From assembly GCA_016838885.1 (NCBI GenBank), contig JAEKNW010000151.1:3024-67023 (forward strand): DNA of 64,000 nucleotides. Reading direction: 5' to 3'. The translations under genes were made by a program, and so were the position numbers. Positions 6,567 through 63,286 of this stretch are shown here, one piece after another. How positions within the stretch are numbered: position 1 is the first letter of the stretch; each line of letters begins with the position of its first letter. This DNA is from Candidatus Cloacimonadota bacterium (GTDB taxonomy: Bacteria; Cloacimonadota; Cloacimonadia; Cloacimonadales; JAFGVF01). The notes below the pieces were generated by a model. The model was not told the origin of the DNA and made no database searches. It saw nothing but the letters and a program-made list of their open reading frames with translations.

Positions 6567-8585
6567 ATGATTGACTTTGATTACAAAAAAGCTATTAAAG
6601 TAAAGTTGTCAGATGAATTACCACCTAAAGCGGAGTTTGATCCCAGCAAACGAAGAGCTCCTGATAGAGGACTGAATCTTTCTAAATATGAAATTAAAAT
6701 TGCTTTGAAAAACGCTTTACGCTACATCCCAGAGCATCTCCACGAAGAAATTGCTCCTGAATTTCTTGAAGAACTTAAAACTATGGGGAGAATTTATGGC
6801 TATAGATACCGTCCCCAAGGTAAACTAATAGGTAAAGCAATCGATGAGTATAAAGGGATTACTCCTGCACGTGCTATGCAAGTAATGATAGATAATAACT
6901 TAGATTTCGAGATAGCCCTCTATCCTTACGAGCTAGTTACTTATGGTGAAACCGGCCAAATTTTCCAAAACTGGATGCAATACCAATTAATTAAACAATA
7001 CTTAGAGATTATGACTGAAGACCAAACTCTTGTGGTAGCTTCAGGACATCCTGTTGGACTATTCCCTTCAAAACCTGAAGCCCCACGTGTGATTAACACC
7101 AACGGTTTAGTAATAGGTAAATGGGACAATCCTGACGACTTTAAAAGACTCACTGCATTAGGAGTCGCTAATTATGGACAGATGACAGCCGGGGGTTGGA
7201 TGTATATCGGACCTCAAGGAATTGTGCACGGTACCTATATTACCCTTCTTAATGCGGGAAGAAAATATCTGGGAATCCCTGAAGATAAAGATTTGAAAGG
7301 GAAGATATTCCTTACTTCAGGACTGGGAGGTATGTCAGGTGCTCAACCAAAAGCTTGTGAAATTGCAGGTGGAATTTGTGTTGTAGCAGAAGTGGACCAT
7401 AGTCGCATCGAAACCCGTTATGAACAAGGATGGGTCTCAAAAGTTTCTGGTAATTTAGAAGAAATCAAGAATTGGATAGAAGAGTATAGAAAAATTGAAA
7501 AACCAATTTCTATAGCCTACCACGGTAATGTAGTTGACTTGTTAGAATATATAGATTCTCAAAATATTAAGATTGAACTATTATCAGATCAAACCTCCTG
7601 CCATGCCGTGTATGATGGTGGTTATACCCCAGCAGGCCTTGATTTCGAAGAGGGAAGAAGATTAATTAAAGAAGATTTGCCTAGATTTAAGAAATTGGTC
7701 GATGAATCTCTGCTTAGACACTTTGAGGTGCTAAAAAAACTCACTGCTAAAGGGGCTTATTTCTGGGATTACGGTAATAGTTTCATGGCTTCAATCTTTG
7801 ATGCAGGAGCAAAAGAAATTGCCAAAAATAAAGTCAACACTAATGAAGGTTTTATTTGGCCATCTTATGTTGAAGATATTATGGGTCCAATCTGCTTTGA
7901 TAATGGCTATGGGCCATTCAGATGGGTTTGTTTGTCCCGAAGAGATGAAGATTTAAGAAAGACTGATCAGATTGCTATGGATTGTATAGATCCAAAAAGA
8001 TGCTCTTTAGATCGAGATAATTATCATTGGATTGCCACCGCTGAGGAGAATGCTCTCGTTGTGGGTACTAGAGCAAGGATTCTCTATGCAGATGAAGAAG
8101 GTAGAGTCGAAATAGCTCTTAGATTTAATGAAGCAATTAGACAAGGCTTAATAGGACCTGTGATGCTGGGTAGAGATCATCACGATGTTTCAGGAACAGA
8201 TTCACCTTTCAGAGAGACTTCTAACATTTATGATGGCAGTAATGTGATGGCAGATATGGCAACTCACTGCTTTGGAGGAAATATTGCTAGAGGAATGTCT
8301 TTGGTTGTATTATCTAACGGAGGTGGTGTTGGTGTTGGAAGATCAATCAATGGTGGAAACGGTATTGTCCTTGATGGTTCAAAGAGAATGGACGAAATTA
8401 TTAAAAGTGCTCTATCTTGGGATGTTATGGGTGGTGTTGCCAGAAGAAACTGGGCAAGAAATACAAATGCAATTAAGACCTCATCCCAATGGAATGAAAA
8501 ACATGCCGGTGAGGGTCATATCACAATCCCATACTTAGCTGACGATAAATTCATTGACACATTAGTCGATGACAAAATAAAATAA
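6567..8585 (+). CDS. hutU: urocanate hydratase (long form)
   Basis: 672 aa. Urocanase signatures ANYGQMTAGGWMYIGPQGIVHGTY and GLGGMSGAQP. Confidence 0.9.
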   Translation: MIDFDYKKAIKVKLSDELPPKAEFDPSKRRAPDRGLNLSKYEIKIALKNALRYIPEHLHEEIAPEFLEELKTMGRIYGYRYRPQGKLIGKAIDEYKGITPARAMQVMIDNNLDFEIALYPYELVTYGETGQIFQNWMQYQLIKQYLEIMTEDQTLVVASGHPVGLFPSKPEAPRVINTNGLVIGKWDNPDDFKRLTALGVANYGQMTAGGWMYIGPQGIVHGTYITLLNAGRKYLGIPEDKDLKGKIFLTSGLGGMSGAQPKACEIAGGICVVAEVDHSRIETRYEQGWVSKVSGNLEEIKNWIEEYRKIEKPISIAYHGNVVDLLEYIDSQNIKIELLSDQTSCHAVYDGGYTPAGLDFEEGRRLIKEDLPRFKKLVDESLLRHFEVLKKLTAKGAYFWDYGNSFMASIFDAGAKEIAKNKVNTNEGFIWPSYVEDIMGPICFDNGYGPFRWVCLSRRDEDLRKTDQIAMDCIDPKRCSLDRDNYHWIATAEENALVVGTRARILYADEEGRVEIALRFNEAIRQGLIGPVMLGRDHHDVSGTDSPFRETSNIYDGSNVMADMATHCFGGNIARGMSLVVLSNGGGVGVGRSINGGNGIVLDGSKRMDEIIKSALSWDVMGGVARRNWARNTNAIKTSSQWNEKHAGEGHITIPYLADDKFIDTLVDDKIK

Positions 8586-12268: not shown

Positions 12269-12380
12269 CCCAAATAATGCAGTAGATCTTTGAGAATAGC
12301 ACTATATTCTTTTGCATTCTTCACCTGTGATACGTAGCTTTAACGAAGTATTACTAAAGCCCTACTGCACCATTCGGGTT
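12267..12380. repeat. 114-nt copy of the AACCC...GGGTT inverted-repeat element family
   Basis: Starts aacccaaataatgcagtagatctttgag and ends ctactgcaccattcgggtt. The interior matches the two flanks of the 226-nt copy at 47456 with the middle deleted. Confidence 0.85.
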
Positions 12381-12398
12381 AAAAAAAAGGAGTTCAAT

Positions 12399-19063: not shown

Positions 19064-19111
19064 AACCCGAATAGTGCAATAGAACTTTAGGTAAGAGTGC
19101 ATCATTCGGGT
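19064..19111. repeat. 48-nt copy of the AACCC...GGGTT element family
   Basis: aacccgaatagtgcaatagaactttaggtaagagtgcatcattcgggt. Ends 15 nt before the ATG at 19127. Confidence 0.8.
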
Positions 19112-19126
19112 AAAAAAAGGATTTTT

Positions 19127-23162: not shown

Positions 23163-25886
23163 ATGAAAAAGAACTTGTTATTTGTACTTGCTTTAGTTTT
23201 ATTAGTTAGTACATCTTTTGCTAACTCTTTTAGAGTTGCGGAAATGAGTAACACACAAAATTCAAGAGATAGTCGTTTTGAACAAATCGCTTGGATTGAT
23301 GATTTTGAAGGTGAAGATAACTGGACTATAGTTGATGAAACTGACGCTCCTCAAGAATGGCACATCTATAACGAAGGCGGAACTTATGGTGACGTTTGGT
23401 GGATGGGTGGAGACAATGGTGGTTATATTGATAACCTCTATTTAGTTTTAGACACTCCCGCTATCCCTCTTTCAGCAGGTAACTCAACTTTAACTTTCGA
23501 TTTAAACTATAATGTTGAAGAACCAGGTGGAACTGGCGAATACAACGGTTGGGATGGTATCAATATTCGTGTTTCTACTGACCAAGAAAACTGGACTGTT
23601 GTAAGTGGAACTCCTGCTTACGATGCAACATCAATGTATTCATTTGGTGAAATTCATGGTGAAGGTCCAAATGTTCCTGGATGGGGCGGCTCTTCTGATG
23701 GTTGGGTTAACGCATCTTTTGACTTATCAGCTTATGAAGGGCAAACAGTATATGTAAGATTTGCTTTTGCTTCTGACCCAGCTTTTAACACTGGTGATGA
23801 TGAAGATATGTTCGGTGTTAAAATTGATAACATCGCTCTTGCTTCATTCTCTAATAATGGTACTGCAGGCGACATGGTTGCTTCAAGTTTAGTTCCTCTA
23901 GGTGGAAACAACTGGTCTTTAGCTGAAGTTACTAATGCTTTCTCAGGAACTCATGTTTATCAATTACAGAATGAGGCAGGCTCTTACGATCCTAATCTTT
24001 TAAATGCAATTATTTCTCCAGTAATTACTCTTCCTACAGAAGGTGAAATATTAGCCACTTTCGAATTAATGGGTGACTTTACTGATCCTGATGCAGGTGG
24101 AGCTGTTTCTGCTCTTGACTACTGGGGATATGAAATTCAACTTGATGGTTCAAATGCATGGTTAGCTATGTCAAATCCATACGCAGATCCTAATGGAAAC
24201 AATTATATCTATTCAGACGCTCCTGATGTTTGGATGCCTGTACATGAAGCTTACACTTTAGATGCAAGACTTGATGACTATGCTGGTGAAGATGTAAGAT
24301 TTAAAATTTACTTCCGTTCTGACGATGATACTCCTCAAGGTTCAGGTATCATGGTTGATGACTTTAGAATAACTACTGAAGTTTTCCTTGCAGAGCCACA
24401 CAATCTTCAAGCAGAAGTACAAGGTGAAGAAGTTCAACTAACTTGGCAACAACCTCTTCAAATGACTGAAACAGAATTCGCATGGACTAATAGTGCATGG
24501 GTTAGCTATGTTAATGATGGACAGCCTTATGCAATTAAAGTTGAAAATAATGATAACTACGACAAACCTCTTTCAAAAATTGGTTTTAATTTATACAATC
24601 AAACTGGTGTAACCGGTTCAGCAACTGTCTATGCTTGGGCTAATGCCGGTGGTTTACCTGGTGCTGAACTAGCTTCTGTTGCCGGTATTACTGGAATGAT
24701 TTCTCAAACTTGGATGAATGTTGATGTAATGTCAGAAAACATCATAGTTCCTGCAAATGGTTCTATCTTTGTTGGTGTTGGCGATTATGATATCACCAAC
24801 CAAGGTTTACTTGCTGATGATACTTCTACTACCGTAGGTTCTTATGCTAATATCCAAGGAACTTGGACTATCGTTACTGAAGCATATACCGGACTTATGA
24901 ATGTCGGTATCAAAGCTACTATCATGGAAGACGATCCAACTCTTCCTTCAGCTGACAGCTACAAAGTTTATCATTCTGAAGATGGTAACAACTACACTTA
25001 CTTAGCAGAAACTGTTGACACAGAATATCTTCATACTTCACCAGTTCTTGGTGCTCTTAACTATTATAAAGTTACGGCACTCTTTGGTATTAACGAATCT
25101 CAAGGTATCACTACTACAGCATTCTTATTACCTGGTGGACTTACTGAAGTTATGAATGATGATGGAAGTGCTGAATCTGCAGCAACTGCAGGTGTAAGTC
25201 ATCTCATGGGTACTAAATTTGTTCACACCCACGAAGCTACTCTTCAATATATCAAATTCTATATTCATACCATGAATGGTGCAAATATGCTCTATAGAAT
25301 CTATACTGTAGAAAATGGTATGCCAGCTGAAAATCTTGCTACTGCAGTTATTCAAAACACTGAATTAGTTCAAGGTTGGAATACAATCGAATTACAAAAC
25401 GAATATACATTTGACAATGGACAGTTCTTCATTGCATTCGTTAATGTTAATAATGCTCCTCTTATCGGTTTAGATGCTGATACTCAAGGAAATTATTACC
25501 TATCTACTGACCAAGGTGCAAACTGGAATAATCAAGCTACAGGTAACCTTATGGTGAGAGCTTTAGTTGTTGATGGTTCTGTGGATAACTATGACGAAGA
25601 AATTGCTCCTGTAGTTTCTAATGTTGGTAACTATCCTAACCCATTCAACCCTCTAACTACCATCAGATTCAACATGTCAAAAGCTGGAAATGCTAATGTT
25701 TCTGTTTATAACCTTAAAGGCCAGTTAGTTAAAACTATCCTTAATGGTAATGTTGAAGCCGGTAATAAAGAAATCGTTTGGAATGGTACTGACACACAAA
25801 ACAACAATGTTGCTAGTGGCGTTTACTTCTTCAGAGTAAAAACTGACAACCAAACTATTAATAGAAAAATGGTTCTTCAAAAATAA
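23163..25886 (+). CDS. secreted T9SS-cargo protein (C-terminal sorting domain)
   Basis: Signal peptide MKKNLLFVLALVLLVSTSFA. C-terminal NYPNPFNP...VYNLKGQLV...GVYFFRV fits the T9SS type-A CTD pattern. GGAGG RBS. Confidence 0.75.
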   Translation: MKKNLLFVLALVLLVSTSFANSFRVAEMSNTQNSRDSRFEQIAWIDDFEGEDNWTIVDETDAPQEWHIYNEGGTYGDVWWMGGDNGGYIDNLYLVLDTPAIPLSAGNSTLTFDLNYNVEEPGGTGEYNGWDGINIRVSTDQENWTVVSGTPAYDATSMYSFGEIHGEGPNVPGWGGSSDGWVNASFDLSAYEGQTVYVRFAFASDPAFNTGDDEDMFGVKIDNIALASFSNNGTAGDMVASSLVPLGGNNWSLAEVTNAFSGTHVYQLQNEAGSYDPNLLNAIISPVITLPTEGEILATFELMGDFTDPDAGGAVSALDYWGYEIQLDGSNAWLAMSNPYADPNGNNYIYSDAPDVWMPVHEAYTLDARLDDYAGEDVRFKIYFRSDDDTPQGSGIMVDDFRITTEVFLAEPHNLQAEVQGEEVQLTWQQPLQMTETEFAWTNSAWVSYVNDGQPYAIKVENNDNYDKPLSKIGFNLYNQTGVTGSATVYAWANAGGLPGAELASVAGITGMISQTWMNVDVMSENIIVPANGSIFVGVGDYDITNQGLLADDTSTTVGSYANIQGTWTIVTEAYTGLMNVGIKATIMEDDPTLPSADSYKVYHSEDGNNYTYLAETVDTEYLHTSPVLGALNYYKVTALFGINESQGITTTAFLLPGGLTEVMNDDGSAESAATAGVSHLMGTKFVHTHEATLQYIKFYIHTMNGANMLYRIYTVENGMPAENLATAVIQNTELVQGWNTIELQNEYTFDNGQFFIAFVNVNNAPLIGLDADTQGNYYLSTDQGANWNNQATGNLMVRALVVDGSVDNYDEEIAPVVSNVGNYPNPFNPLTTIRFNMSKAGNANVSVYNLKGQLVKTILNGNVEAGNKEIVWNGTDTQNNNVASGVYFFRVKTDNQTINRKMVLQK

Positions 25887-25908: not shown

Positions 25909-25937
25909 AGAGGCTGAGAAATCAGCCTCTTTTTTTG
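25909..25937 (+). terminator. rho-independent terminator
   Basis: agaggctga GAAA tcagcctct hairpin followed by TTTTTTT. Confidence 0.8.
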
Positions 25938-25948
25938 TTTATTTGTTT

Positions 25949-25985
25949 AACCCGAATGGTGCAGTAGAACTTTGATGAAGAGTGC
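25949..25985. repeat. solo left terminus of the AACCC...GGGTT element family
   Basis: aacccgaatggtgcagtagaactttgatgaagagtgc. No matching right terminus was found downstream. Confidence 0.7.
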
Positions 25986-26117
25986 TGGGATTGCGGGCTT
26001 CAAGCCCGTATTAGAAACCGGTAACTCGTTGCCGGTTCTTATCATCTTGCTGTTAGCAAGATAGATCATTTCTCCTCTTTAGGAGAAATGAATACGGGCT
26101 GGAAGCCCGCAATCCCA
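25986..26117. other. GC-rich 132-nt inverted-repeat element enclosing three hairpins (candidate structured RNA or MITE)
   Basis: The 27-nt arms tgggattgcgggcttcaagcccgtatt (25986-26012) and aatacgggctggaagcccgcaatccca (26091-26117) are complementary with 1 mismatch. Hairpins lie at 26016-26037, 26044-26062 and 26068-26089. Confidence 0.6.
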
Positions 26118-26406
26118 AAGAATATGCCCGCAATCCCAGTTAAGAATGCCAGCAGGGATGTTAGCGCTCCCAGAGAAGAAGTCGTGCTCCAAGTCAGGAA
26201 AAGCTCATTTTGCATGAGTCTGTCTATTATCAATCACATTACCACTGTGGTTTTACCACTTGTCTATTGTATCACTGTTAGCTTTTTTTCTAATAGTGAC
26301 CTAATAGATGCCCAATAGACCCCCAATAAAGACCCAGTAAATGGCAGAGAGTTCTACAAAGTTCATAATGGCAGAAAGTTATACAAAGATGTTTTGCTCA
26401 TGATAA

Positions 26407-26429
26407 TTTCCACCAGACTTGAACTTGAG
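26407..26429 (-). repeat. 23-nt motif CTCAAGTTCAAGTCTGGTGGAAA (inverted copy)
   Basis: The + strand reads tttccaccagacttgaacttgag, the exact reverse complement of 31484-31506 and 55003-55025. Confidence 0.85.
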
Positions 26430-26604
26430 TCTAAAAAAACACCATAGGCTTCCAGATTACTGCTGGAGGTGATGGGATGAATTTCGGACTTTTTTACAAA
26501 ATATCAAGAGCAACTAGAGGCTAAGTATTCTTTTATCTAGTCCACTTAGAGCTTAAACAAATCCAAAAGTTCAATATGTATAAATAGCATCTCAGAAAAA
26601 AACA

Positions 26605-26644
26605 TTGACAAGAATTCATATCAATATTTTATAGACCAGTGGTC
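26605..26644 (+). promoter_or_regulatory. candidate promoter plus palindromic operator upstream of the TetR gene
   Basis: TTGACA at 26605-26610 with an AT-rich -10 region about 17 nt downstream. Perfect palindrome GACCAgTGGTC at 26634-26644, between the -10 region and the RBS. Confidence 0.4.
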
Positions 26645-26666
26645 GAATATAAGAATAGGAGTCGAG

Positions 26667-27296
26667 ATGGAAAGAACTGAAAAAGAATATGTTATGAGAG
26701 AACAAAAGATTATTAAATCAGCCCGGAAACTTTTCATCAGGTTTGGATTTGATAATGTCTCCTTAAATCAAATTGCTAAGGATGCTGAATTTGGGAAATC
26801 AACTCTTTACTACTATTTTAAGAGTAAAGATGAACTGTTTTATCATGTAATAAGATCATTTGATATTGTAAGGTTACGCTCATGTCAAAATGAGTTTAAC
26901 AAGGGGGAATATCCGCAACAGAAAATTTCCAACTACCTAGTTGAATATTATAGGTTTGCCAAAAAAGACTATGTATTCTACATGATGTCATATGATTACG
27001 AATTCCTACTATATAGGAAAATTATCCCTAATCTAGCAACAGAATTAATAGAAAAATATGAGAAGTATTTCGTTGATGATGCATGTCAGTTAAAAAACCA
27101 ATTATTATTAGGAGAAGAAACTGGGCATTTCAAAACAATGGAAGACAAAGATTTTCTTCTGGGATACATTATGTCAACAACTCGTGGATTTATCTTCTTT
27201 ATCTTTCAACATCTTTTTGTTACCAAAACAATTTCAGAGAAAAAAGCAGATGAATATTATAATTTACACTTGAAAACAATATTAAACAATCTCTAG
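26667..27296 (+). CDS. TetR/AcrR-family transcriptional regulator
   Basis: N-terminal HTH SLNQIAKDAEFGKSTLYYYFKSKDELF. 209 aa. Confidence 0.85.
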   Translation: MERTEKEYVMREQKIIKSARKLFIRFGFDNVSLNQIAKDAEFGKSTLYYYFKSKDELFYHVIRSFDIVRLRSCQNEFNKGEYPQQKISNYLVEYYRFAKKDYVFYMMSYDYEFLLYRKIIPNLATELIEKYEKYFVDDACQLKNQLLLGEETGHFKTMEDKDFLLGYIMSTTRGFIFFIFQHLFVTKTISEKKADEYYNLHLKTILNNL

Positions 27297-27305
27297 GAGA
27301 GCCAA

Positions 27306-28853
27306 ATGAAAATTTTACTAATACTTATAATCATTACATTCAACATGTTAGTAACTACTGCTTGCGATAAAACTAGACATAATGGAACTATTAAAAGATT
27401 AGACAATTCTTTAATAACAATAAACAAAGTCGATAGCTTAGTTAATTTTTATATGCGTGAAGCTAATGTCACAGGATTATCATTATCTATTATTACCAAT
27501 AATGAGCTTGCATATATTAAATCTTATGGATATAAAAATAAGATTAACCACACTGAGTTAACTGAAAATTCAATCATGAGTGGTGCATCTTTCAGTAAGT
27601 TAGTATTTGCTTATATTGTATCTTCTCTTGCCGAGAATAATCTTATTGATTTAGATAAACCTTTATATAAGTATTTAGATAAACCAATTTATGATTTCGA
27701 GGAGTTTGCAGATCTTAAGAATGATAGTAGGTGGAAAGAGATTACTGCAAGACATTGTTTATCTCATTCTACCGGATTTCCTAATTCAAGATATTTCAAT
27801 CGTGACCATAAGCTTGAAATATTTTTTAAGCCGGGTTCAAATACAGCATATTCTGGAGAGGGATTTTCTTTTTTACAGCTTGTTATTGAGGAGATTACGG
27901 GTGTTTCATTAGAAGAATTAGCTCAGAAAATAGTGTTTGAGCCACTTAAAATGACGAACAGCAGTTATCTTTCCCTAAAGAATCTTAATGAAGGTTATGC
28001 TTCTGGCCATAACATCCTTGAAGATACTTATGGCTTACAGTTTAACAGCAATGCTGGAGCTGGAGGATCATTGCAAACAACTATCATAGATTTTTCTAAG
28101 TTTATTTTACACCTAATGGATAAAAATAATGAAAGATTAGTAAAAAGAATTATATCACCTTCTATTAGAATTAAGAAAAAAAATCAGTTTCCTTCTTTGT
28201 CTTTTGAAGAGACAGATAGATATAACTCAGTTAATCTTTCTTATGGTTTAGGTTGTGTTGTAATGGATACGAAAATTGGTAGAGCATTTTTGAAAGAAGG
28301 ACATGGTATGGGATTTCAAAACTATACAATATCTTTTCCAGAAGTTGGAAGCTCTATAATTTTAATGTCCAATAGTGATAATGCTGAACTAATTTTTAAA
28401 TATCTCCTTGAAGATATCATCAAGGATAATTTCACTCTTTGGGAATGGGAAGGTTATATTCCATACGATAAGTTAAGCAAAGAATCTATTGGAAGATATT
28501 TATATGATATCATTGTTATGGATTCTATAGATAATGCAATTAATACTTATAGGAAAATTAAAGAAAGTAAATTGAAAGATAGATTTATATTTGATGAAGC
28601 GGAATTAAATAACCTCGGTTATCAACTTGTTAAAGAGGGAAAAATGGAAGATGCGATTAAGTTATTTATAATTAATGTTGAAGAGTATCCCAAATCAGCA
28701 AATGTTTATGATAGTCTTGCCGAAGCATATTCTTTGATTGGTAAAATCGACTTAGCTATCAAATACTATGAAAAATCAATCGAATTGAATGGGAACAGTA
28801 AGTCTAGTAATACTCTTGAAAAGTTAAAAGTACTAATTAGGAGTACAAAATGA
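27306..28853 (+). CDS. beta-lactamase-family serine hydrolase lipoprotein with C-terminal TPR-like region
   Basis: Signal peptide/lipobox LVTTAC. SxxK (SFSK), YSGEG and HGMG motifs in class-C/esterase order. C-terminal helical repeats (AIKLFIINVEEYPKSANVYDSLAEAY). Confidence 0.78.
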   Translation: MKILLILIIITFNMLVTTACDKTRHNGTIKRLDNSLITINKVDSLVNFYMREANVTGLSLSIITNNELAYIKSYGYKNKINHTELTENSIMSGASFSKLVFAYIVSSLAENNLIDLDKPLYKYLDKPIYDFEEFADLKNDSRWKEITARHCLSHSTGFPNSRYFNRDHKLEIFFKPGSNTAYSGEGFSFLQLVIEEITGVSLEELAQKIVFEPLKMTNSSYLSLKNLNEGYASGHNILEDTYGLQFNSNAGAGGSLQTTIIDFSKFILHLMDKNNERLVKRIISPSIRIKKKNQFPSLSFEETDRYNSVNLSYGLGCVVMDTKIGRAFLKEGHGMGFQNYTISFPEVGSSIILMSNSDNAELIFKYLLEDIIKDNFTLWEWEGYIPYDKLSKESIGRYLYDIIVMDSIDNAINTYRKIKESKLKDRFIFDEAELNNLGYQLVKEGKMEDAIKLFIINVEEYPKSANVYDSLAEAYSLIGKIDLAIKYYEKSIELNGNSKSSNTLEKLKVLIRSTK

Positions 28854-29311
28854 AGAAATTGAAACTTATAATCGTATGTTGGAGTTTTATATTACTAATG
28901 ATTAGTTGTAAAAACACCAAACCTACTGAAAATTACATAACTGAGTTTTCATCACTAAATGGAGCTAGTTATATTCTAAATATTGATAGATTGTGTGAGA
29001 ATCCTGAAGTACAATCCCCAATAGATAATCTTCATGAAAGTAATTATTATGAGACATCTGGGAATATCTCTTATGAAGTTACTTTCTCAGATAATGGGAA
29101 TAATTTAATAATCGAGCAAGGTTATATACAGGCAGAGAAGACAGTTGATGAAGAAGGATGCAAGTACTTTGAATTAGAAGAAGGTACTTTTGCTGGGGGT
29201 CGATTTATCGTGTGGATAAATGAAAATAGATTTAATGTTGAGCTAACTATTTATGGGTCTGGAATACCAATCATAAGAAGTGAAAGGGGTGTCTTAAATC
29301 TGAATCAATAG
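28850..29311 (+). CDS. lipoprotein of unknown function
   Basis: ATGA overlap with the upstream stop. Signal peptide with LMISC lipobox. Confidence 0.5.
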   Translation: MKKLKLIIVCWSFILLMISCKNTKPTENYITEFSSLNGASYILNIDRLCENPEVQSPIDNLHESNYYETSGNISYEVTFSDNGNNLIIEQGYIQAEKTVDEEGCKYFELEEGTFAGGRFIVWINENRFNVELTIYGSGIPIIRSERGVLNLNQ

Positions 29312-29380
29312 TTTATGACAGTTAACATGAAAATGCACAAGATTAAGTGTAAAATAAAATAAAAAGGAACTGAAAAGATT

Positions 29381-30916
29381 ATGAAAATTTCAATTATAAC
29401 ATTAATACTATTGGCGTTCTTAGATCTGTTGGCAGCTAAAGATATTAATGATGAGAAATGCCTTATCATTGATTTAGAGACCGCTGAAAAAACGAATAAT
29501 TTAAGAATGATTGAAAATATTTTCTCAGATAATGCTTCATTACTATACCCTGATAGTACTCCCAAATGTAGTAAAGAAGCTATCATTTCCTTCTATGAAT
29601 ACCTATGGAAAAATACTTCGATTAGGACTATTAGATATGAAAACATAAAAATTGAAAAGATTGGAACTCAACAAATTGAAACAGGAACTTTAATGTTCTT
29701 GAATAGTAATAGAGAAACAGTTGAATTACCGTTTAAAGCCGTTATTGTAAATAATAATAATAAGCTAAAAATCCATATTTTAGCACTAGGGAAAGATATG
29801 GATCTTAAACATACAACACTCAAATTGCCTACCCCTACTGGTGAATACAATGTTGCTCAGTCAAGTCATTATTACCCAAAATCTGAATCTACAAGTAATC
29901 GCACAGTTTCTTTTCAACTTTGGTATCCAACAAATCCAAACGAAACTAAAACCGCAGTTTATCATAGCAAGGAAGTTGCTAGAGCAGCTGCAGAATTTAT
30001 GGGATTACCCCTTTTCTTTAATAGCTATGAACCTTTAGTAAGAACTAATTCTTATGTAAATGCTCCAGCTGTCCCAGATACTTCGTTTCCGATTCTTTTA
30101 TATAATCATGGATACGGTGGATTCACTTCTGTCTATCAGTCTGTGTTTGAAGACCTTGCAAGTCATGGCTATGTTGTTGTCAGTATTGCTCATGAGAACG
30201 AGTCTTCACTGTTCATCACTGAAACTGGTGAAGTAGTTAGAAATAATCCCGAAAATGATTTCTATAGAAAAAGAGAACCTGAGTTGAGTGGTCCAGCAGT
30301 TAATAAGCTTCAAGATATTATCTTAAACTCAGATAATATCAAGAAAATTGAGAAAGCTTACCTTGATTTAATATCACTTAGTCCATTACATAATGAAAGC
30401 ACGCGTCTGTGGACCAAAGACAACAAAGTAGTTATTGAAAAATTAAAAGAAATAGCTAAAGATAGTCCTAATCTTAGAGGAGCTTTTGATTTCGAGAACA
30501 TGGGTATTTTTGGTCATTCAGTTGGTGGTGCAGTAGCTGGTCAAATGGCTTTTGATTGTCCTGAAATCGATGCTGGAATTAACCTTGATGGTTTTCAATT
30601 TGGAGATTTAGTCTATAATAAATTAGAAATACCCTTTATGTTTGTTTCGAGTAATCAACGAGAAAATTCTTATTTACGAGCCACCTCATTAATGCAAAAT
30701 TCTCAAAATGATTGCTATCAAGCTATTATCAAAGGATTTTCCCATAGCAGTTTCACGGATTTAAGATTGTTTGAACCCGGTGGTGAAGAAGCAATTTCTC
30801 TTCAGAGGGAGTTGATTTTGATTTTTTTCAATAAACATCTGAAGAATCTCAATATCGATATGAATGAAGTAGTGGATAAATATCCTATTATTGAAATTAT
30901 AAAAAATAATAATTAG
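29381..30916 (+). CDS. alpha/beta hydrolase, PAF-acetylhydrolase-like, with extra N-terminal domain
   Basis: Signal peptide. LLYNHGYGGFTSVYQ...LASHGYVVVSIAHE and nucleophile elbow GHSVGG as in plasma PAF-AH-type lipases. About 130 N-terminal residues lie outside the hydrolase core. Confidence 0.7.
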   Translation: MKISIITLILLAFLDLLAAKDINDEKCLIIDLETAEKTNNLRMIENIFSDNASLLYPDSTPKCSKEAIISFYEYLWKNTSIRTIRYENIKIEKIGTQQIETGTLMFLNSNRETVELPFKAVIVNNNNKLKIHILALGKDMDLKHTTLKLPTPTGEYNVAQSSHYYPKSESTSNRTVSFQLWYPTNPNETKTAVYHSKEVARAAAEFMGLPLFFNSYEPLVRTNSYVNAPAVPDTSFPILLYNHGYGGFTSVYQSVFEDLASHGYVVVSIAHENESSLFITETGEVVRNNPENDFYRKREPELSGPAVNKLQDIILNSDNIKKIEKAYLDLISLSPLHNESTRLWTKDNKVVIEKLKEIAKDSPNLRGAFDFENMGIFGHSVGGAVAGQMAFDCPEIDAGINLDGFQFGDLVYNKLEIPFMFVSSNQRENSYLRATSLMQNSQNDCYQAIIKGFSHSSFTDLRLFEPGGEEAISLQRELILIFFNKHLKNLNIDMNEVVDKYPIIEIIKNNN

Positions 30917-30922
30917 GAGATA

Positions 30923-31159
30923 ATGATGAGAATAAGTGTATGCGGAATTGCCTGTGAAAAGTGTCCAAGAATGCAAAAGGGAATCTGTCCAAATGGCGTA
31001 GAAGGTTGCACTCCTAAACTAACAGGACCTTGTAAAATCAAGCATTGTGCTGTTGAAAAGAAAGTTCGCTATTGTTTTGATTGTAAGGAATTTCCTTGCG
31101 AACTTTCGAAAATAGGTCCGATTAATTATGGCTACTGTAAATATATTGCAGGTATCTAA
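30923..31159 (+). CDS. small cysteine-rich protein (DUF3795-like)
   Basis: 78 aa with 11 Cys. CGIACEKCP ... CFDCKEFPC pattern. GGAG RBS. Confidence 0.65.
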   Translation: MMRISVCGIACEKCPRMQKGICPNGVEGCTPKLTGPCKIKHCAVEKKVRYCFDCKEFPCELSKIGPINYGYCKYIAGI

Positions 31160-31350
31160 CAATATCATGAAATTAATATTTATACTAATGTTGATAGGAT
31201 TAGTATTCCTCGCTTATGGAATGGAATCAATAATTGGGGGTTTATGATTCTGGTAGATCAGTTTCTTCAGGCATATATCTATTTTCTTTATAAACAATAG
31301 GAAAAATAAGAACTTTAAGAAAAATGATGTTACTAGAATAGAGGAGACAA

Positions 31351-31483
31351 TATTGATCATATCGTATATCTTGACGCTAAAGCAAAAGAACTTGAGAATC
31401 TCCAAAATGGAAGCAAGACAATGATTATTCGCGGAGCAATGGGAAGAAAATTACCATACAGACTGGTCAATAATTTCTTATGG
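31351..31483 (+). pseudogene. 5' fragment of a disrupted gene
   Basis: Downstream of a GAGGAGA RBS the frame reads (I)DHIVYLDAKAKELENLQNGSKTMIIRGAMGRKLPYRLVNNF. It has no ATG and then runs into the 23-nt repeat motif and repeat debris. Confidence 0.3.
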
Positions 31484-31506
31484 CTCAAGTTCAAGTCTGG
31501 TGGAAA
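31484..31506 (+). repeat. 23-nt motif CTCAAGTTCAAGTCTGGTGGAAA
   Basis: Exact copy. Inverted relative to 26407-26429. Confidence 0.85.
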
Positions 31507-31598
31507 ATATTTAGCATTATTTTGCACTAGATATTGTATTACACTAATTTACGGATTAGAATGTACTCTTGATAGTAGTTTTTAGTTGAATAAGACAT

Positions 31599-31790
31599 AA
31601 TCCTGAAGGGATAGGTCTTATATCCCTAAAGGGGATAAATAGTTTAGCCCAGGGTAAGATGCTGAAAGTATCGCAACCCTGGGTTATGATGCATATAAAA
31701 AGTGTAACCCTGTAAGGGTTTAATAAAAACATGTATATCAAAGACTTATTATATTACATTGTTGGCATTATATTAAACCCTTACAGGGTT
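31599..31790. repeat. REP-like hairpin cluster related to the RAYT-flanking modules
   Basis: Contains aaatagtttagcccagggtaagatgctgaaagtatcgcaaccctgggtta (compare 55091-55140) plus short GAA/GTA-loop hairpins (atccct..agggat, aaccctgtaagggtt, aacccttacagggtt). Confidence 0.8.
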
Positions 31791-31839
31791 CTGGTTGTAG
31801 TTTCTGTTATTGGCCTTCAAAAGAGCCACTATTTTAGTT

Positions 31840-32167
31840 GGCTCTCTCTCAAGTAGGGTGGGTCTTAGAAAAAAAAAATAGAAGTATCTTTGAAGTATGC
31901 CATGTTCACAACAGATACAGGATTATAAAAACACACCATTCTACCAGCTGCAGAGGCAGCGACATCTTTGTAGTTCAGAAAGCTAAAAACTATCCATAAG
32001 CTCCAGAGGAGCGGCACATCTAAGGCTTTTTGTGTCGCTCCTCTGGAGCTTAGGTTATTGTTTGGCATCTGTTATCTACAAAGATTTCGCTCCTCCGGAG
32101 CTATGAGGATTTTGAAGCTTCTTGATTCACAATTAGATTTAGTTCCCACCCTACTTGAGAGAGAGCC
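31840..32167. mobile_element. palindromic MITE-like element with perfect 23-nt terminal inverted repeats
   Basis: ggctctctctcaagtagggtggg (31840-31862) and cccaccctacttgagagagagcc (32145-32167). Nested internal inverted repeats include a perfect 17-bp pair, taagctccagaggagcg / cgctcctctggagctta. Confidence 0.75.
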
Positions 32168-32210
32168 TTTTAGTTTAAAAGCGTAAAGCATCTTTACGCC
32201 ATTTCTCTTT

Positions 32211-32244
32211 AAAACAGAAAAGAGGTGCTATATTCAGCACCTCT
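32211..32244 (-). terminator. rho-independent terminator after frr
   Basis: The minus strand reads agaggtgct-loop-agcacctct followed by TTTCTGTTTT. Confidence 0.75.
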
Positions 32245-36184: not shown

Positions 36185-36221
36185 ATGTCAAGACATTTAT
36201 TAATTTAGGGAAATGTTTATC
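36185..36221. repeat. 37-nt direct repeat, left copy (carries TTGACA on the minus strand upstream of rplM)
   Basis: atgtcaagacatttattaatttagggaaatgtttatc. Identical except for 1 nt to 40205-40241. Confidence 0.9.
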
Positions 36222-36223
36222 AC

Positions 36224-36498
36224 TAATGGTGCAGTAGAGCTTTAGTAATACTTCGCTAATACATTCTACATAGCTTTCTACTTCTCTAAAGCTACGTAGA
36301 ATGTATTAGCGAAGTAGAAAGCTAAGTATCACAGGTGAAGAGTGTAGATTCTTTTAGCAAAAATAAATTACAGAATCTTCTTGAATATATATTATATACC
36401 AGTTAAGGATGCCCCCCATATCTCCCTCAAAGATGGAGATTTGGCACTTTTTCTGCTTTAGCGACTTCTTTCTAAATCTATAATACACCATTTCGTTG
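36224..36498. repeat. rearranged 275-nt copy of the AACCC...GGGTT element family (truncated left end, degenerate right end)
   Basis: Starts aatggtgcagtagagctttag (the family terminus lacking AACCCG). The interior is colinear with parts of the 47456 copy. It contains perfect 21-nt (36249-36269 / 36296-36316) and 14-nt (36271-36284 / 36311-36324) inverted repeats. Confidence 0.7.
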
Positions 36499-47426: not shown

Positions 47427-47455
47427 TGTAAAAATATATAAAGTTACTCGCATTA

Positions 47456-47681
47456 AACCCAAATAATGCAGTAGAATTTAGGGATAAAGCGAATAGCACT
47501 ATCTTCTTTTGCAAAAGTAAGCTACATCATTTTCAGGAATATATATATTATATGCCTTTTATGGATGCACCCTCTGTGTCCCCCTCAAAGAAGGGGATTT
47601 TGCTAAAAGAACCTAGCACTCTTCACCTGTGATACGTAGCTTTAGCGAAGTATTATCAAAGTTCTAATGCCCATTCGGGTT
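47456..47681. repeat. 226-nt full-length copy of the AACCC...GGGTT element family
   Basis: Starts aacccaaataatgcagtagaatttaggg and ends ctaatgcccattcgggtt. Lies between promoter 47398 and the dapA RBS. Confidence 0.85.
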
Positions 47682-47702
47682 AAACGAGAAAAGGAGAAAG
47701 AA

Positions 47703-63092: not shown

Positions 63093-63257
63093 AACCCGAA
63101 TGATACAGTAGAACTTTAGGGAAGAGTACAGATTCTTCCAGCAAAGTAAGTTACAGAATTTGATTGCATATAATATATATATTCAAGAAAATTATGTAGC
63201 TTACTTTTGCAGAAGAATATATTGCTATTCACAAAGGTCTACTGCATTATTTGGGTT
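63093..63257. repeat. 165-nt copy of the AACCC...GGGTT element family
   Basis: Starts aacccgaatgatacagtagaactttaggg and ends ctactgcattatttgggtt. The left end lies 29 nt upstream of the minus-strand ATG at 63063. Confidence 0.85.
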
Positions 63258-63286
63258 TTAAAAAAACAGCCCGATAAAAGGCTGTT
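63258..63286 (-). terminator. rho-independent terminator after hisS
   Basis: The minus strand reads aacagcc-loop-ggctgtt followed by TTTTTT. Confidence 0.7.

Follow-up and report, generated by a model that had tools for sequence, protein, structure and literature searches.

REPINs, in which two inverted REPs enclose a spacer, are moved by a RAYT that acts in trans and is in most cases a single-copy gene (PMC3337134, PMC3116915, PMC2817692), and both REPINs and RAYTs have been described in Pseudomonas and Enterobacteria (Bertels & Rainey 2011, PMC3116915, PMC3337134; Nunvar et al. 2010, PMC2817692). REPs, BIMEs and REPtrons have been summarised previously (PMC6006769), and a small 'class 3' of Y1 proteins of Planctomycetes and Acidobacteria, accompanied by atypical flanking hairpins in up to ~600 copies (Solibacter usitatus), was reported in the same work (Quentin et al. 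2018, PMC6006769). Moreover, another study applies the names 'TIRtrons/TIRYTs' where Y1 genes have non-GTAG repeats at their flanks (Di Nocera et al. 2013, PMC3733652). Work on REPs and on REPIN-RAYT systems has so far been almost entirely confined to Proteobacteria. The present study revealed a GC-rich element of comparable design in a 64-kb contig segment of a Candidatus Cloacimonadota genome (hereafter the window, i.e., the whole stretch of 64,000 nt that was analysed), and this element is most probably (probability of about 0.8) a REPIN/BIME-type REP doublet of a family served by a clade of RAYT (HUH-Y1) enzymes. It represents a new REP family in Cloacimonadota, within an established class of short mobile DNAs that encode no protein, and is not a new kind of system.

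The element lies in an intergenic region of 780 nt, 100 nt past a gene whose 907-aa product ends in a T9SS sorting tail and 550 nt before a TetR gene. The first-pass annotation had described it as a structure of about 132 nt, with 27-nt inverted arms closing three perfect hairpins. The repeat search of the window recovered these arms at 25986-26012 and 26091-26117 (27 nt, 96% complementary with one mismatch, gap of 78 nt), together with a perfect 14-nt inverted match between 25985-25998 and 26126-26139. All three inner hairpins were present, the third being slightly longer than had been described, and all five hairpins of the window copy, including those formed within the arms, are perfect (Table 1). 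The reported repetition of a 13-nt piece of the right arm was likewise confirmed, with the 13-mer GCCCGCAATCCCA occurring at 26105-26117 and 26126-26138 (offset 21 nt) and three times in the 64 kb compared with 0.26 expected. The third copy in the window belongs to a half-REP array with a 21-nt period, which is a trait of the family, and the window unit at 26126 bears the canonical outer flank CCCAGTTAAG, identical at 18/18 positions to copies in a related MAG. Because half-REP units and a decayed REP continue past the right arm, REP-derived DNA spans ~25985-26202, which corrects the extent given in the earlier annotation.

The ORFs of 76 and 55 aa that overlap the element had no Pfam match, and both read through repeat units, in agreement with the earlier view that no protein-coding explanation fits and that the 76-aa ORF looks spurious. 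The strong terminator noted upstream and the adjoining AACCC-family terminus were also recovered, the latter being matched at six further positions of the window. This adjoining repeat family (TTAACCCGAATGGTGCAG...) has paired copies elsewhere in the window and is distinct from the REP element. The window is also rich in other MITE-like repeats.

Table 1. Positions of the REP-derived and adjoining features in the window (nt of the 64,000-nt stretch), with the doublet of a syntenic relative (L154) in the last line.
Feature	Position	Strand	Description
Intrinsic terminator	25909-25930	+	Belongs to the upstream 907-aa T9SS-cargo gene (23163-25886); also precedes the L154 REP doublet
Left end of the unrelated MITE-like 'AACCC' family	25941-25984	+	TIR TTAACCCGAATGGTGCAGTAGAACTTTG...; abuts the REP doublet; no matching right end
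Left REP	25985-26012	+	Unpaired head CTGGGATT at 25985-25992; hairpin GCGGGCT-TCA-AGCCCGT at 25993-26009; then ATT
Spacer hairpin H1	26016-26037	.	9 bp; sequence unrelated to H1 in the copies of other genomes
Spacer hairpin H2	26044-26062	.	8 bp; CTTGC...GCAAG core common to the MAG copies
Spacer hairpin H3	26066-26091	.	11 bp; homologous to the REP-accompanying MAG hairpin ATTCCCCTTC..GAAGGGAAATG, with compensatory changes
Right REP	26091-26118	-	Inverted copy of the left REP; hairpin 26095-26109; head 26110-26118 (TTGGGATT, minus strand)
Half-REP array	26105-26202	-	3' stem half + head + linker; period ~21 nt; starts at 26105, 26126, 26160 and 26181
Decayed second-subtype REP	26141-26173	-	GCCAGCAGGGATGTTAGCGCTCCCAG; matches the REPs flanking the L146 RAYT gene; score 18-20, reached by 0/500 shuffles
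L154 doublet			ACTGGGAAC-TCGGGCATCCCTGCCCGA, two inner hairpins, GCGGGCAGGGATGCCCGC-ATTCCCAGT, then the head once more

A first scan for TGGGATTGCGGGC-N5-GCCCG, run on one genome per species, gave matches that included five contigs of a single Cloacimonadales MAG. In this MAG, the motif ACTGGGATTGCGG-hairpin-CCGTATT was found in three forms, namely solo, beside GTAG-headed palindromes, and as full arm-H1-H2-H3-arm elements. A metagenome scan for CTGGGATTGCGG-N9-10-CCGTATT yielded 54 loci, including 47 from the metagenome matching the MAG (Ga0265294); the other seven, from outside Ga0265294, were rejected as chance matches without a hairpin. The 47 fetched loci (391,789 nt) contained 97 heads, with the hairpin following 76/97, and the 64 kb of the window contained one locus. 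Fifteen distinct full copies (14 from the MAG and that of the window), 125-132 nt in length, share the arm-H1-H2-H3-arm layout with a mean column identity of 81% and invariant head and stem bases, and the covariance model of these 15 copies had exactly one match in the window (84.8 bits, E = 1e-18), no other window score coming near. The full copies are all intergenic (15/15) and mostly lie beside the 3' end of a gene (13/14), in the same orientation as the neighbouring gene in eight cases and in the opposite one in seven. Doublets with inverted arms around a spacer were also detected in L151, L154, and L146, and the left-REP unit was further found solo, in doublets, and beside RAYT genes (L110, L112, and L015 among others).

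In addition to full copies, the family includes solo units, half units, and tandem H2-H3-arm modules with an 82-nt period, and the spacings between heads on the same strand are dominated by 21 (9x), 42 (4x), and 63 (2x) nt. The head consensus is C[CT]GGGA-NN and not the canonical GT[AG]G tag, with a Bacteroidales head variant in L078 (GTAGGCTGGGATT...). The arm pattern had no match in viral contigs, and searching the literature for the arm sequences as strings retrieved no paper.

Each arm is itself a palindrome, so that both local hairpins and a long arm-arm helix can form. The predicted folding energies were -88.1 kcal/mol for RNA of the plus strand (z = -10.8), -88.4 kcal/mol for RNA of the minus strand (z = -9.7), and -55.7 kcal/mol for DNA (z = -12.7), all with a four-way shape; z scores were taken against dinucleotide shuffles, the energies lying 10-13 standard deviations beyond them, and an equal folding energy was reached by 0/200 shuffles. 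The cloverleaf-like, four-way fold proposed in the first-pass annotation is hence the thermodynamic optimum (z ~ -11), but it is not favoured by the comparative data. The local stems, which the annotation had named as an alternative fold of each arm, were paired in 150/150 cells across the 15 copies, with C-G<->U-A swaps, whereas the long-range pairs at the same positions were C·A in 5/15 copies and G·U in 6/15, and the long-range pair 13-122 was broken in 5/15. Similarly, the L154 arms (left TCGGGC/GCCCGA, right GCGGGC/GCCCGC) are compensated locally (T..A vs G..C) and mismatched in the long-range pairing, and the arms of L146:18336-18441 represent different REP subtypes that are not complementary to each other. 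Since the arm differences are compensated within the arms and not between them, the structures under selection would be the five local hairpins, and the comparative evidence favours these, together with single-stranded heads, over a four-way junction. Local hairpins with single-stranded heads are also as expected for substrates of Y1 enzymes on single-stranded DNA. The covariation that the annotation had proposed to look for was recovered in part: H1 and H3 showed compensatory changes among the copies, H2 was not recovered in that consensus, and the junction-closing helix had no compensation. Furthermore, the spacer hairpins of other genomes are unrelated in sequence and two or three in number, and the conserved feature of the spacer is hairpins as such, not one particular RNA.

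Searching all ORFs of the fetched loci with E. coli RayT as the query identified a protein of 188 aa (L110:410-976) that contains the motif MPNHVHVLI and a downstream catalytic Tyr and matches PF01797 (Y1_Tnp) at 2e-12. Its best NCBIfam model was NF047646 REP_Tyr_transpos with 66.6 bits, a score below the curated cut-off of 80, compared with 30.1 bits for transpos_IS200; a PDB sequence search with this protein gave no significant match. The gene is situated inside a cluster of REPs of just this family, with three tandem H2-H3-arm modules upstream, a full doublet downstream, and 21-nt half-REP arrays on both sides, and a frameshifted RAYT copy was found in the same kind of REP cluster in L112. 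On an Acidobacteriota contig (L050) recovered by the first scan, a 47%-identical RAYT homologue is bracketed by GCGGGC-CTCCC-GCCCGC-AATCCCA and GCGGGC-CGGAG-GCCCGC-GCTCCCAGG. The clade comprises at least 608 homologues from Cloacimonadota, Acidobacteriota, Verrucomicrobiota, Chloroflexota, and Planctomycetota, and neither the HUH histidines nor the Tyr aligned to the catalytic Tyr of RayT vary within the clade or between it and E. coli RayT. Many of the homologues are named RayT in IMG.

A reciprocal test gave a consistent picture, as the loci that RAYT homology retrieved in Cloacimonadota, Chloroflexota, and Planctomycetota bear C[CT]GGGA-NN-GC-hairpin units directly at the gene flanks (L146, L147, and L149/L150), and RAYT homologues in four further phyla are flanked by the C[CT]GGGA-NN-hairpin motif. 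The REPs at the RAYT flanks of L110 and L112 are of the type identical to that of the element, the same head-plus-hairpin motif occurs in L050, L146, L147, and L149, and L151 has the variant head GTCGGAC at its RAYT flank. That the RAYT-linked motif spans phyla accounts for the identical loops (GTCCC, TGGAA) and the inverted pairs of ~60-90 nt among many of the 'chance' matches that the first scan gave in distant phyla. At the level of sequence, the arms of the window element are identical to REPs flanking RAYT genes, and the element can be assigned to a multi-copy dispersed family.

The 64-kb window was found by phmmer and tblastn to contain no RAYT gene or remnant. A member of this RAYT clade, MBI9032645.1, probably belongs to the same MAG as the TetR protein of the window (MBI9031550.1), judging only from the proximity of their accessions (~1,100 apart). 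MBI9032645.1 is encoded on a 2.6-kb contig. Its close relative P0021, with which it clusters at 90% identity, has a different, GTCGGAC-type REP (AGTCGGAC-GGTGGAGA...) at its flanks, which was sought in the window and is absent from it. In the genome of P0021 (L151), a doublet of the CTGGGAGT type is present as well, in which the right arm is duplicated and the three spacer hairpins are different ones.

Taken together, each REP comprises an 8-nt single-stranded head (CTGGGATT) placed 5' of a 6-7-bp GC hairpin, and the element consists of two such REPs, inverted with their heads outward, around a 78-nt spacer of three independent hairpins, followed by a short 21-nt half-REP array. We propose that, when the DNA becomes single-stranded in replication or repair, each REP would fold locally, and a RAYT encoded elsewhere in the genome would recognise the hairpin and head, cleave the strand, and rejoin it. 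Doublets could in this way be copied or moved to new intergenic sites without target duplication, occupied sites could be overwritten, and partial units could be reiterated. We infer the mobilisation of the doublets by RAYT, and binding, cleavage, and rejoining of single-stranded REPs by RAYT, whose catalytic residues are conserved, are predicted. RAYT catalysis, the cleavage sites, the strand preference, the origin of the half-REP array, a host effect of the element (as terminator, insulator, or recombination hot spot), and a part played by it in capturing the TetR island are likewise putative.

The history of the locus was followed across three genomes. The H+-pyrophosphatase (PPase) of the window is 86-89% identical to proteins of Cloacimonadales MAGs, and a 2.88-Mb MAG (L154, ~80% nucleotide identity) shares with the window the gene order PPase-ABC-ABC-T9SS protein; in L154, frr-pyrH-tsf-rpsB follow 273 nt after the T9SS gene. 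There, a doublet of the same family stands directly after a terminator identical in sequence to that of the window and is the sole model match in its 22-kb locus. In the third genome, i.e., the related MAG (L116), a doublet with the opposite spacer orientation lies 315 nt past a 72%-identical orthologue of the T9SS gene. A doublet is therefore present at the T9SS-gene site in 3/3 genomes, with differences in the arm loops and in the number (two or three), sequence, and orientation of the inner hairpins. The terminator is identical between the window and L154, and the doublets occupying the site are far more divergent than the terminator. Moreover, at least in the MAG, the occupant of the site is typical of the family found in that genome. 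This history is in keeping with a doublet that was replaced or re-inserted at a site which was preferred or already occupied, or that underwent gene conversion from paralogues, and less so with simple vertical descent; a local host function at the shared site could also have a place. The contig of a 97%-identical relative (L152) ends 246 nt after the PPase gene, before the locus.

These observations can be drawn together into a more far-reaching, tentative and on balance doubtful reading, in which a positionally maintained and structure-selected doublet, being more than selfish DNA, would be repeatedly overwritten in place by RAYT, the half-REP arrays would be footprints of an undescribed RAYT reaction that copies by cleaving and rejoining, the sites would serve as entry points for gene cassettes (here a 6.3-kb region with a TetR operon), and the RAYT clade and the C[CT]GGGA-headed REP would have been co-inherited over at least five phyla. 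In-place overwriting at a maintained site would explain why a doublet follows the same terminator in three genomes despite differing loops, spacer hairpins, and orientation.

The shared site could alternatively reflect a structural element domesticated by the host, in which the hairpins, whether in DNA or in RNA from read-through, would bind a protein, terminate transcription (as a back-up or in both directions), stabilise the 3' end of the mRNA, or insulate the operon downstream, with mobility being irrelevant or extinct. This appears unlikely, even though the doublet is the sole model match both in the 64 kb of the window and in the 22 kb of L154, each time directly after the same conserved terminator, and L116 has its doublet past the orthologous gene. 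The five perfect hairpins of the window copy point the same way, as a near-perfect copy at a shared site could reflect selection, and so do the terminator-like hairpins with T-rich tails flagged on the minus strand (26111-26093 and 26091-26066). In addition, PMC3733652 reports REPs as located mainly downstream of genes and acting as RNA elements. On the other hand, the syntenic copies vary in arm loops and inner hairpins beside an identical terminator, which looks like turnover, and the family has no orientation bias; because the window copy sits behind an intrinsic terminator, little read-through transcript would be expected. A domesticated role is compatible with a REPIN origin and does not exclude it.

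Among the three candidates offered by the first-pass annotation, a novel MITE came nearest, as the element belongs to a dispersed repeat family with multiple copies; it is not of the TIR type, its arms being REP units. As a classical MITE, the element would carry its 27-nt arms as TIRs for the DDE transposase of a related autonomous IS acting on double-stranded DNA, and the terminal inverted repeats, small size, multiple copies in the relative, and surroundings rich in MITE-like repeats would suit this explanation. However, no direct target-site duplication was found at the flanks of any of the 15 copies, and the flanks are instead inverted, with a symmetry that reaches outward (...TTAC/TGGGATT...AATCCCA/GTAA...). 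The ~400 kb of fetched loci contained no arm-bounded DDE gene, and the sole transposase gene embedded among the units is the Y1/HUH RAYT. Furthermore, solo, half, and tandem units are not the behaviour of TIRs, and the arm differences are compensated within the arms. A DDE-mobilised MITE is consequently very unlikely.

A structured RNA built on a four-way junction, either a stand-alone small RNA or a cis-regulatory one and thus another of the candidates, would be in keeping with the very stable predicted fold (z ~ -11) and with the compensatory changes in H1 and H3. The scan against Rfam 15 gave no match at gathering thresholds in the whole 64 kb, and a permissive local E-value scan returned sub-threshold noise only; ARAGORN likewise detected no tRNA and no tmRNA in the window. 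Both strands fold equally well, no convincing promoter for the element was found, and the junction-closing helix is the very part without compensation support. The annotation had itself taken multiple scattered copies as a sign against an RNA, and the related MAG harbours a multi-copy dispersed family whose members occur in either orientation to the neighbouring genes. The element was also absent from TetR orthologue loci (50-77% identity), in which the upstream synteny is not conserved, and this shows that it is not part of the conserved TetR operator region. A structured RNA is thus an extremely improbable explanation.

A segment of 6.3 kb (25935-32214) is present in the window but not in L154 and comprises the repeat region, a TetR-beta-lactamase-like-PAF-AH-DUF3795 operon, and more palindromes. 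The TetR operon is found in other contexts as well (L087 and L088). The left edge of the extra segment is the REP region, and PMC8450116 describes REPs as targets or hot spots for some IS, e.g., ISPpu9; both points would agree with the remaining candidate, a recombination or attachment site behind the integration of this island. Nevertheless, there is scarcely any likelihood of this, as no integrase or recombinase gene is present within the island, no att context was seen, and the right junction shows neither a recognisable REP copy nor a direct repeat. As L154 lacks the island yet carries a complete doublet, the doublet either predates the insertion or is independent of it.

Retron ncRNA, attC, CRISPR repeat, and tRNA-like element were rejected, as no RT, integrase, or cas gene is nearby, there is no spacer periodicity, and no tRNA is present, and an IS200/IS605 end or PATE was discarded since the arms are inverted copies of one unit and the protein scores 66.6 with REP_Tyr_transpos against 30.1 with transpos_IS200.

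Accordingly, the reading of the element as a REP doublet is retained, and the finding consists of a clearly bounded REP family from an uncultured phylum, the Cloacimonadota, together with the RAYT that probably serves it. The family is linked to the same head-plus-hairpin motif around the RAYT homologues of several phyla, among them Acidobacteriota, Planctomycetota, and Chloroflexota. It explains GC-rich palindromes that break MAG assemblies and yield spurious small ORFs, and it warns against annotating such palindromes as structured RNA. Moreover, the hairpin-only spacer, the 21-nt half-REP arrays, and the turnover of doublets at one site offer leads on how RAYTs copy REPs, the mechanism of which is unresolved even in E. 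coli.

Compared with known systems, TIR-type MITEs (Correia/NEMIS, ERIC, RUP, and Nezha) are likewise non-coding repeats of 100-150 nt with inverted ends and long stem-loops, but they have DDE-type TIRs and target duplications, neither of which was seen here. The PATEs of IS200/IS605 resemble the present element in their sub-terminal hairpins, which a Y1 HUH enzyme recognises in single-stranded DNA, as is proposed here, and in the lack of target duplication, whereas they end in two distinct hairpins of one strand and not in inverted copies of one REP. The BIMEs of E. coli are likewise mosaics of alternating REPs and short motifs, which can be clustered, tandemly reiterated, or incomplete and for the most part follow genes; they differ in their REP sequence, and the linker modules here are hairpins. 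BIMEs are bound by IHF, gyrase, or Pol I.

The class 3 TnpA-Y1 proteins (PMC6006769) and TIRYTs (PMC3733652) resemble the present clade in that their Y1 genes have non-GTAG flanking structures and in the NHVH HUH motif, a Y-x4-Q-like motif (YIRNEQ here), and a conserved N-terminal extension. In contrast, the 5' foot reported for class 3 is 'CnGA', and the supplementary data examined have no CTGGGA entries. The catalytic Tyr here corresponds to the downstream YI..N motif in the alignment with E. coli RayT, and the best NCBIfam model is the class-2-type REP_Tyr_transpos, the present clade being a possible member of class 3. Neither PMC6006769 nor PMC3733652 mentions Cloacimonadota.

The closest correspondence is with REPIN-RAYT systems. 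Several differences set the present family apart from these, namely the head, which is CTGGGA(TT) and not GT[AG]G, the long spacer (78 nt) with two to three autonomous hairpins that vary in sequence between genomes, the 21-nt half-REP arrays accompanying the units, and the host phylum Cloacimonadota. The RAYT clade is also only ~20% identical to E. coli RayT and is common to Acidobacteriota, Planctomycetota, Chloroflexota, and Verrucomicrobiota. In common with REPINs, the present elements consist of inverted REP hairpins around a spacer, measure ~100-130 nt, and are intergenic, non-coding, free of target duplication, and, in the related MAG, multi-copy, and the same REPs flank a Y1/HUH RAYT gene in the manner of a REPtron, as seen in L110 and L112 rather than in the window itself.

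Relative to the syntenic 2.88-Mb Cloacimonadota MAG (L154:19399-19569), the window carries a 6.3-kb insertion (25935-32214), the left edge of which is the REP region and which contains an operon encoding TetR, beta-lactamase-like, PAF-acetylhydrolase-like, and DUF3795 proteins. The same operon was present in other contexts in two further loci (L087 and L088). The promoter/operator region of the tetR gene (26620-26666; TTGACAgaatt...atagaccNNtggtcgaatat) was retained in L085, L086, and L087, with orthologues 50-77% identical, and this conserved stretch probably includes the TetR operator.

Partial REPs, each consisting of a stem half and a head, were reiterated in tandem in the window, in L154, and in L110, a Cloacimonadota locus with a RAYT (REP-associated tyrosine transposase) gene among REPs, with a period of ~20 nt in L154 and of 21 nt in the other two. 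In L151, from a genome whose RAYT gene has a REP with a variant head at its flanks, the entire right arm of a separate doublet was duplicated (6945-7010). To our knowledge, half-REP arrays of this kind have not been described.

Coordinates of the repeat features
Feature	Locus	Positions
Partial-REP tandem arrays	L110	241-310, 1021-1100, 1321-1450
Partial-REP tandem array	window	26105-26202
Partial-REP tandem array	L154	19497-19535
MITE-like copies (TTAACCCGAATGGTGCAGTAGAACTTTG...)	window	12269-12395, 19064-19118, 47455-47685, 63093-63270
MITE-like partial copies (TTAACCCGAATGGTGCAGTAGAACTTTG...)	window	25941-25984 (left end only), 36214-36243
Long palindromes/nested inverted repeats	window	31997-32052, 31845-32165, 31705-31791, 36251-36314

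In an Acidobacteriota contig (CAZLHW010000350; L050:30-3179), a 1049-aa ORF with an N-terminal D12-class DNA methyltransferase contained a REP-RAYT-REP unit in frame, and two other RAYT homologues, P0111 and P0117, are named 'putative DNA methylase' in IMG, yet have only the Y1 domain. In Planctomycetaceae (L149:3098-5660 and L150), the gene of the RAYT homologue P0123 was located between cas4 and cas1, with CCGGGAAC-GCGGACGTCCCGTCCGC hairpins on its flanks. Another Cloacimonadota locus carried five tandem copies of a ~60-nt unit (ttcccagttaaaagagaacaccccctgtgtccccctcacggagggggatttaagatgc) downstream of its RAYT gene (L146:10640-10900); the GTGTCCCCCTC..GGGGATTT hairpin module of this unit is also present at ~47590-47620 within an AACCC-type element of the window.

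The AACCC-type family is MITE-like and distinct from the REP element, with terminal inverted repeats and copies of 55-230 bp; in a relative with 97% identity (L152), the contig stops at the position of the window's 19064 copy. The window also harbored further palindromic DNA, namely long perfect palindromes as well as inverted repeats nested within one another; their stems measured 22-29 bp, and they bore no relation to the REP head. Among them, the module at 36251 (cgtagaatgtattagcgaag) also adjoins the doublet in L116, a third genome. Furthermore, GTAG-headed palindromes (GTAGGGGCGTATTGCAATACGCCCCTAC and variants; L001, L015, L016, L020, L024, and L030) often directly adjoined the CTGGGATT-type REP, suggesting that a second, canonical REP family is present in the same genomes.
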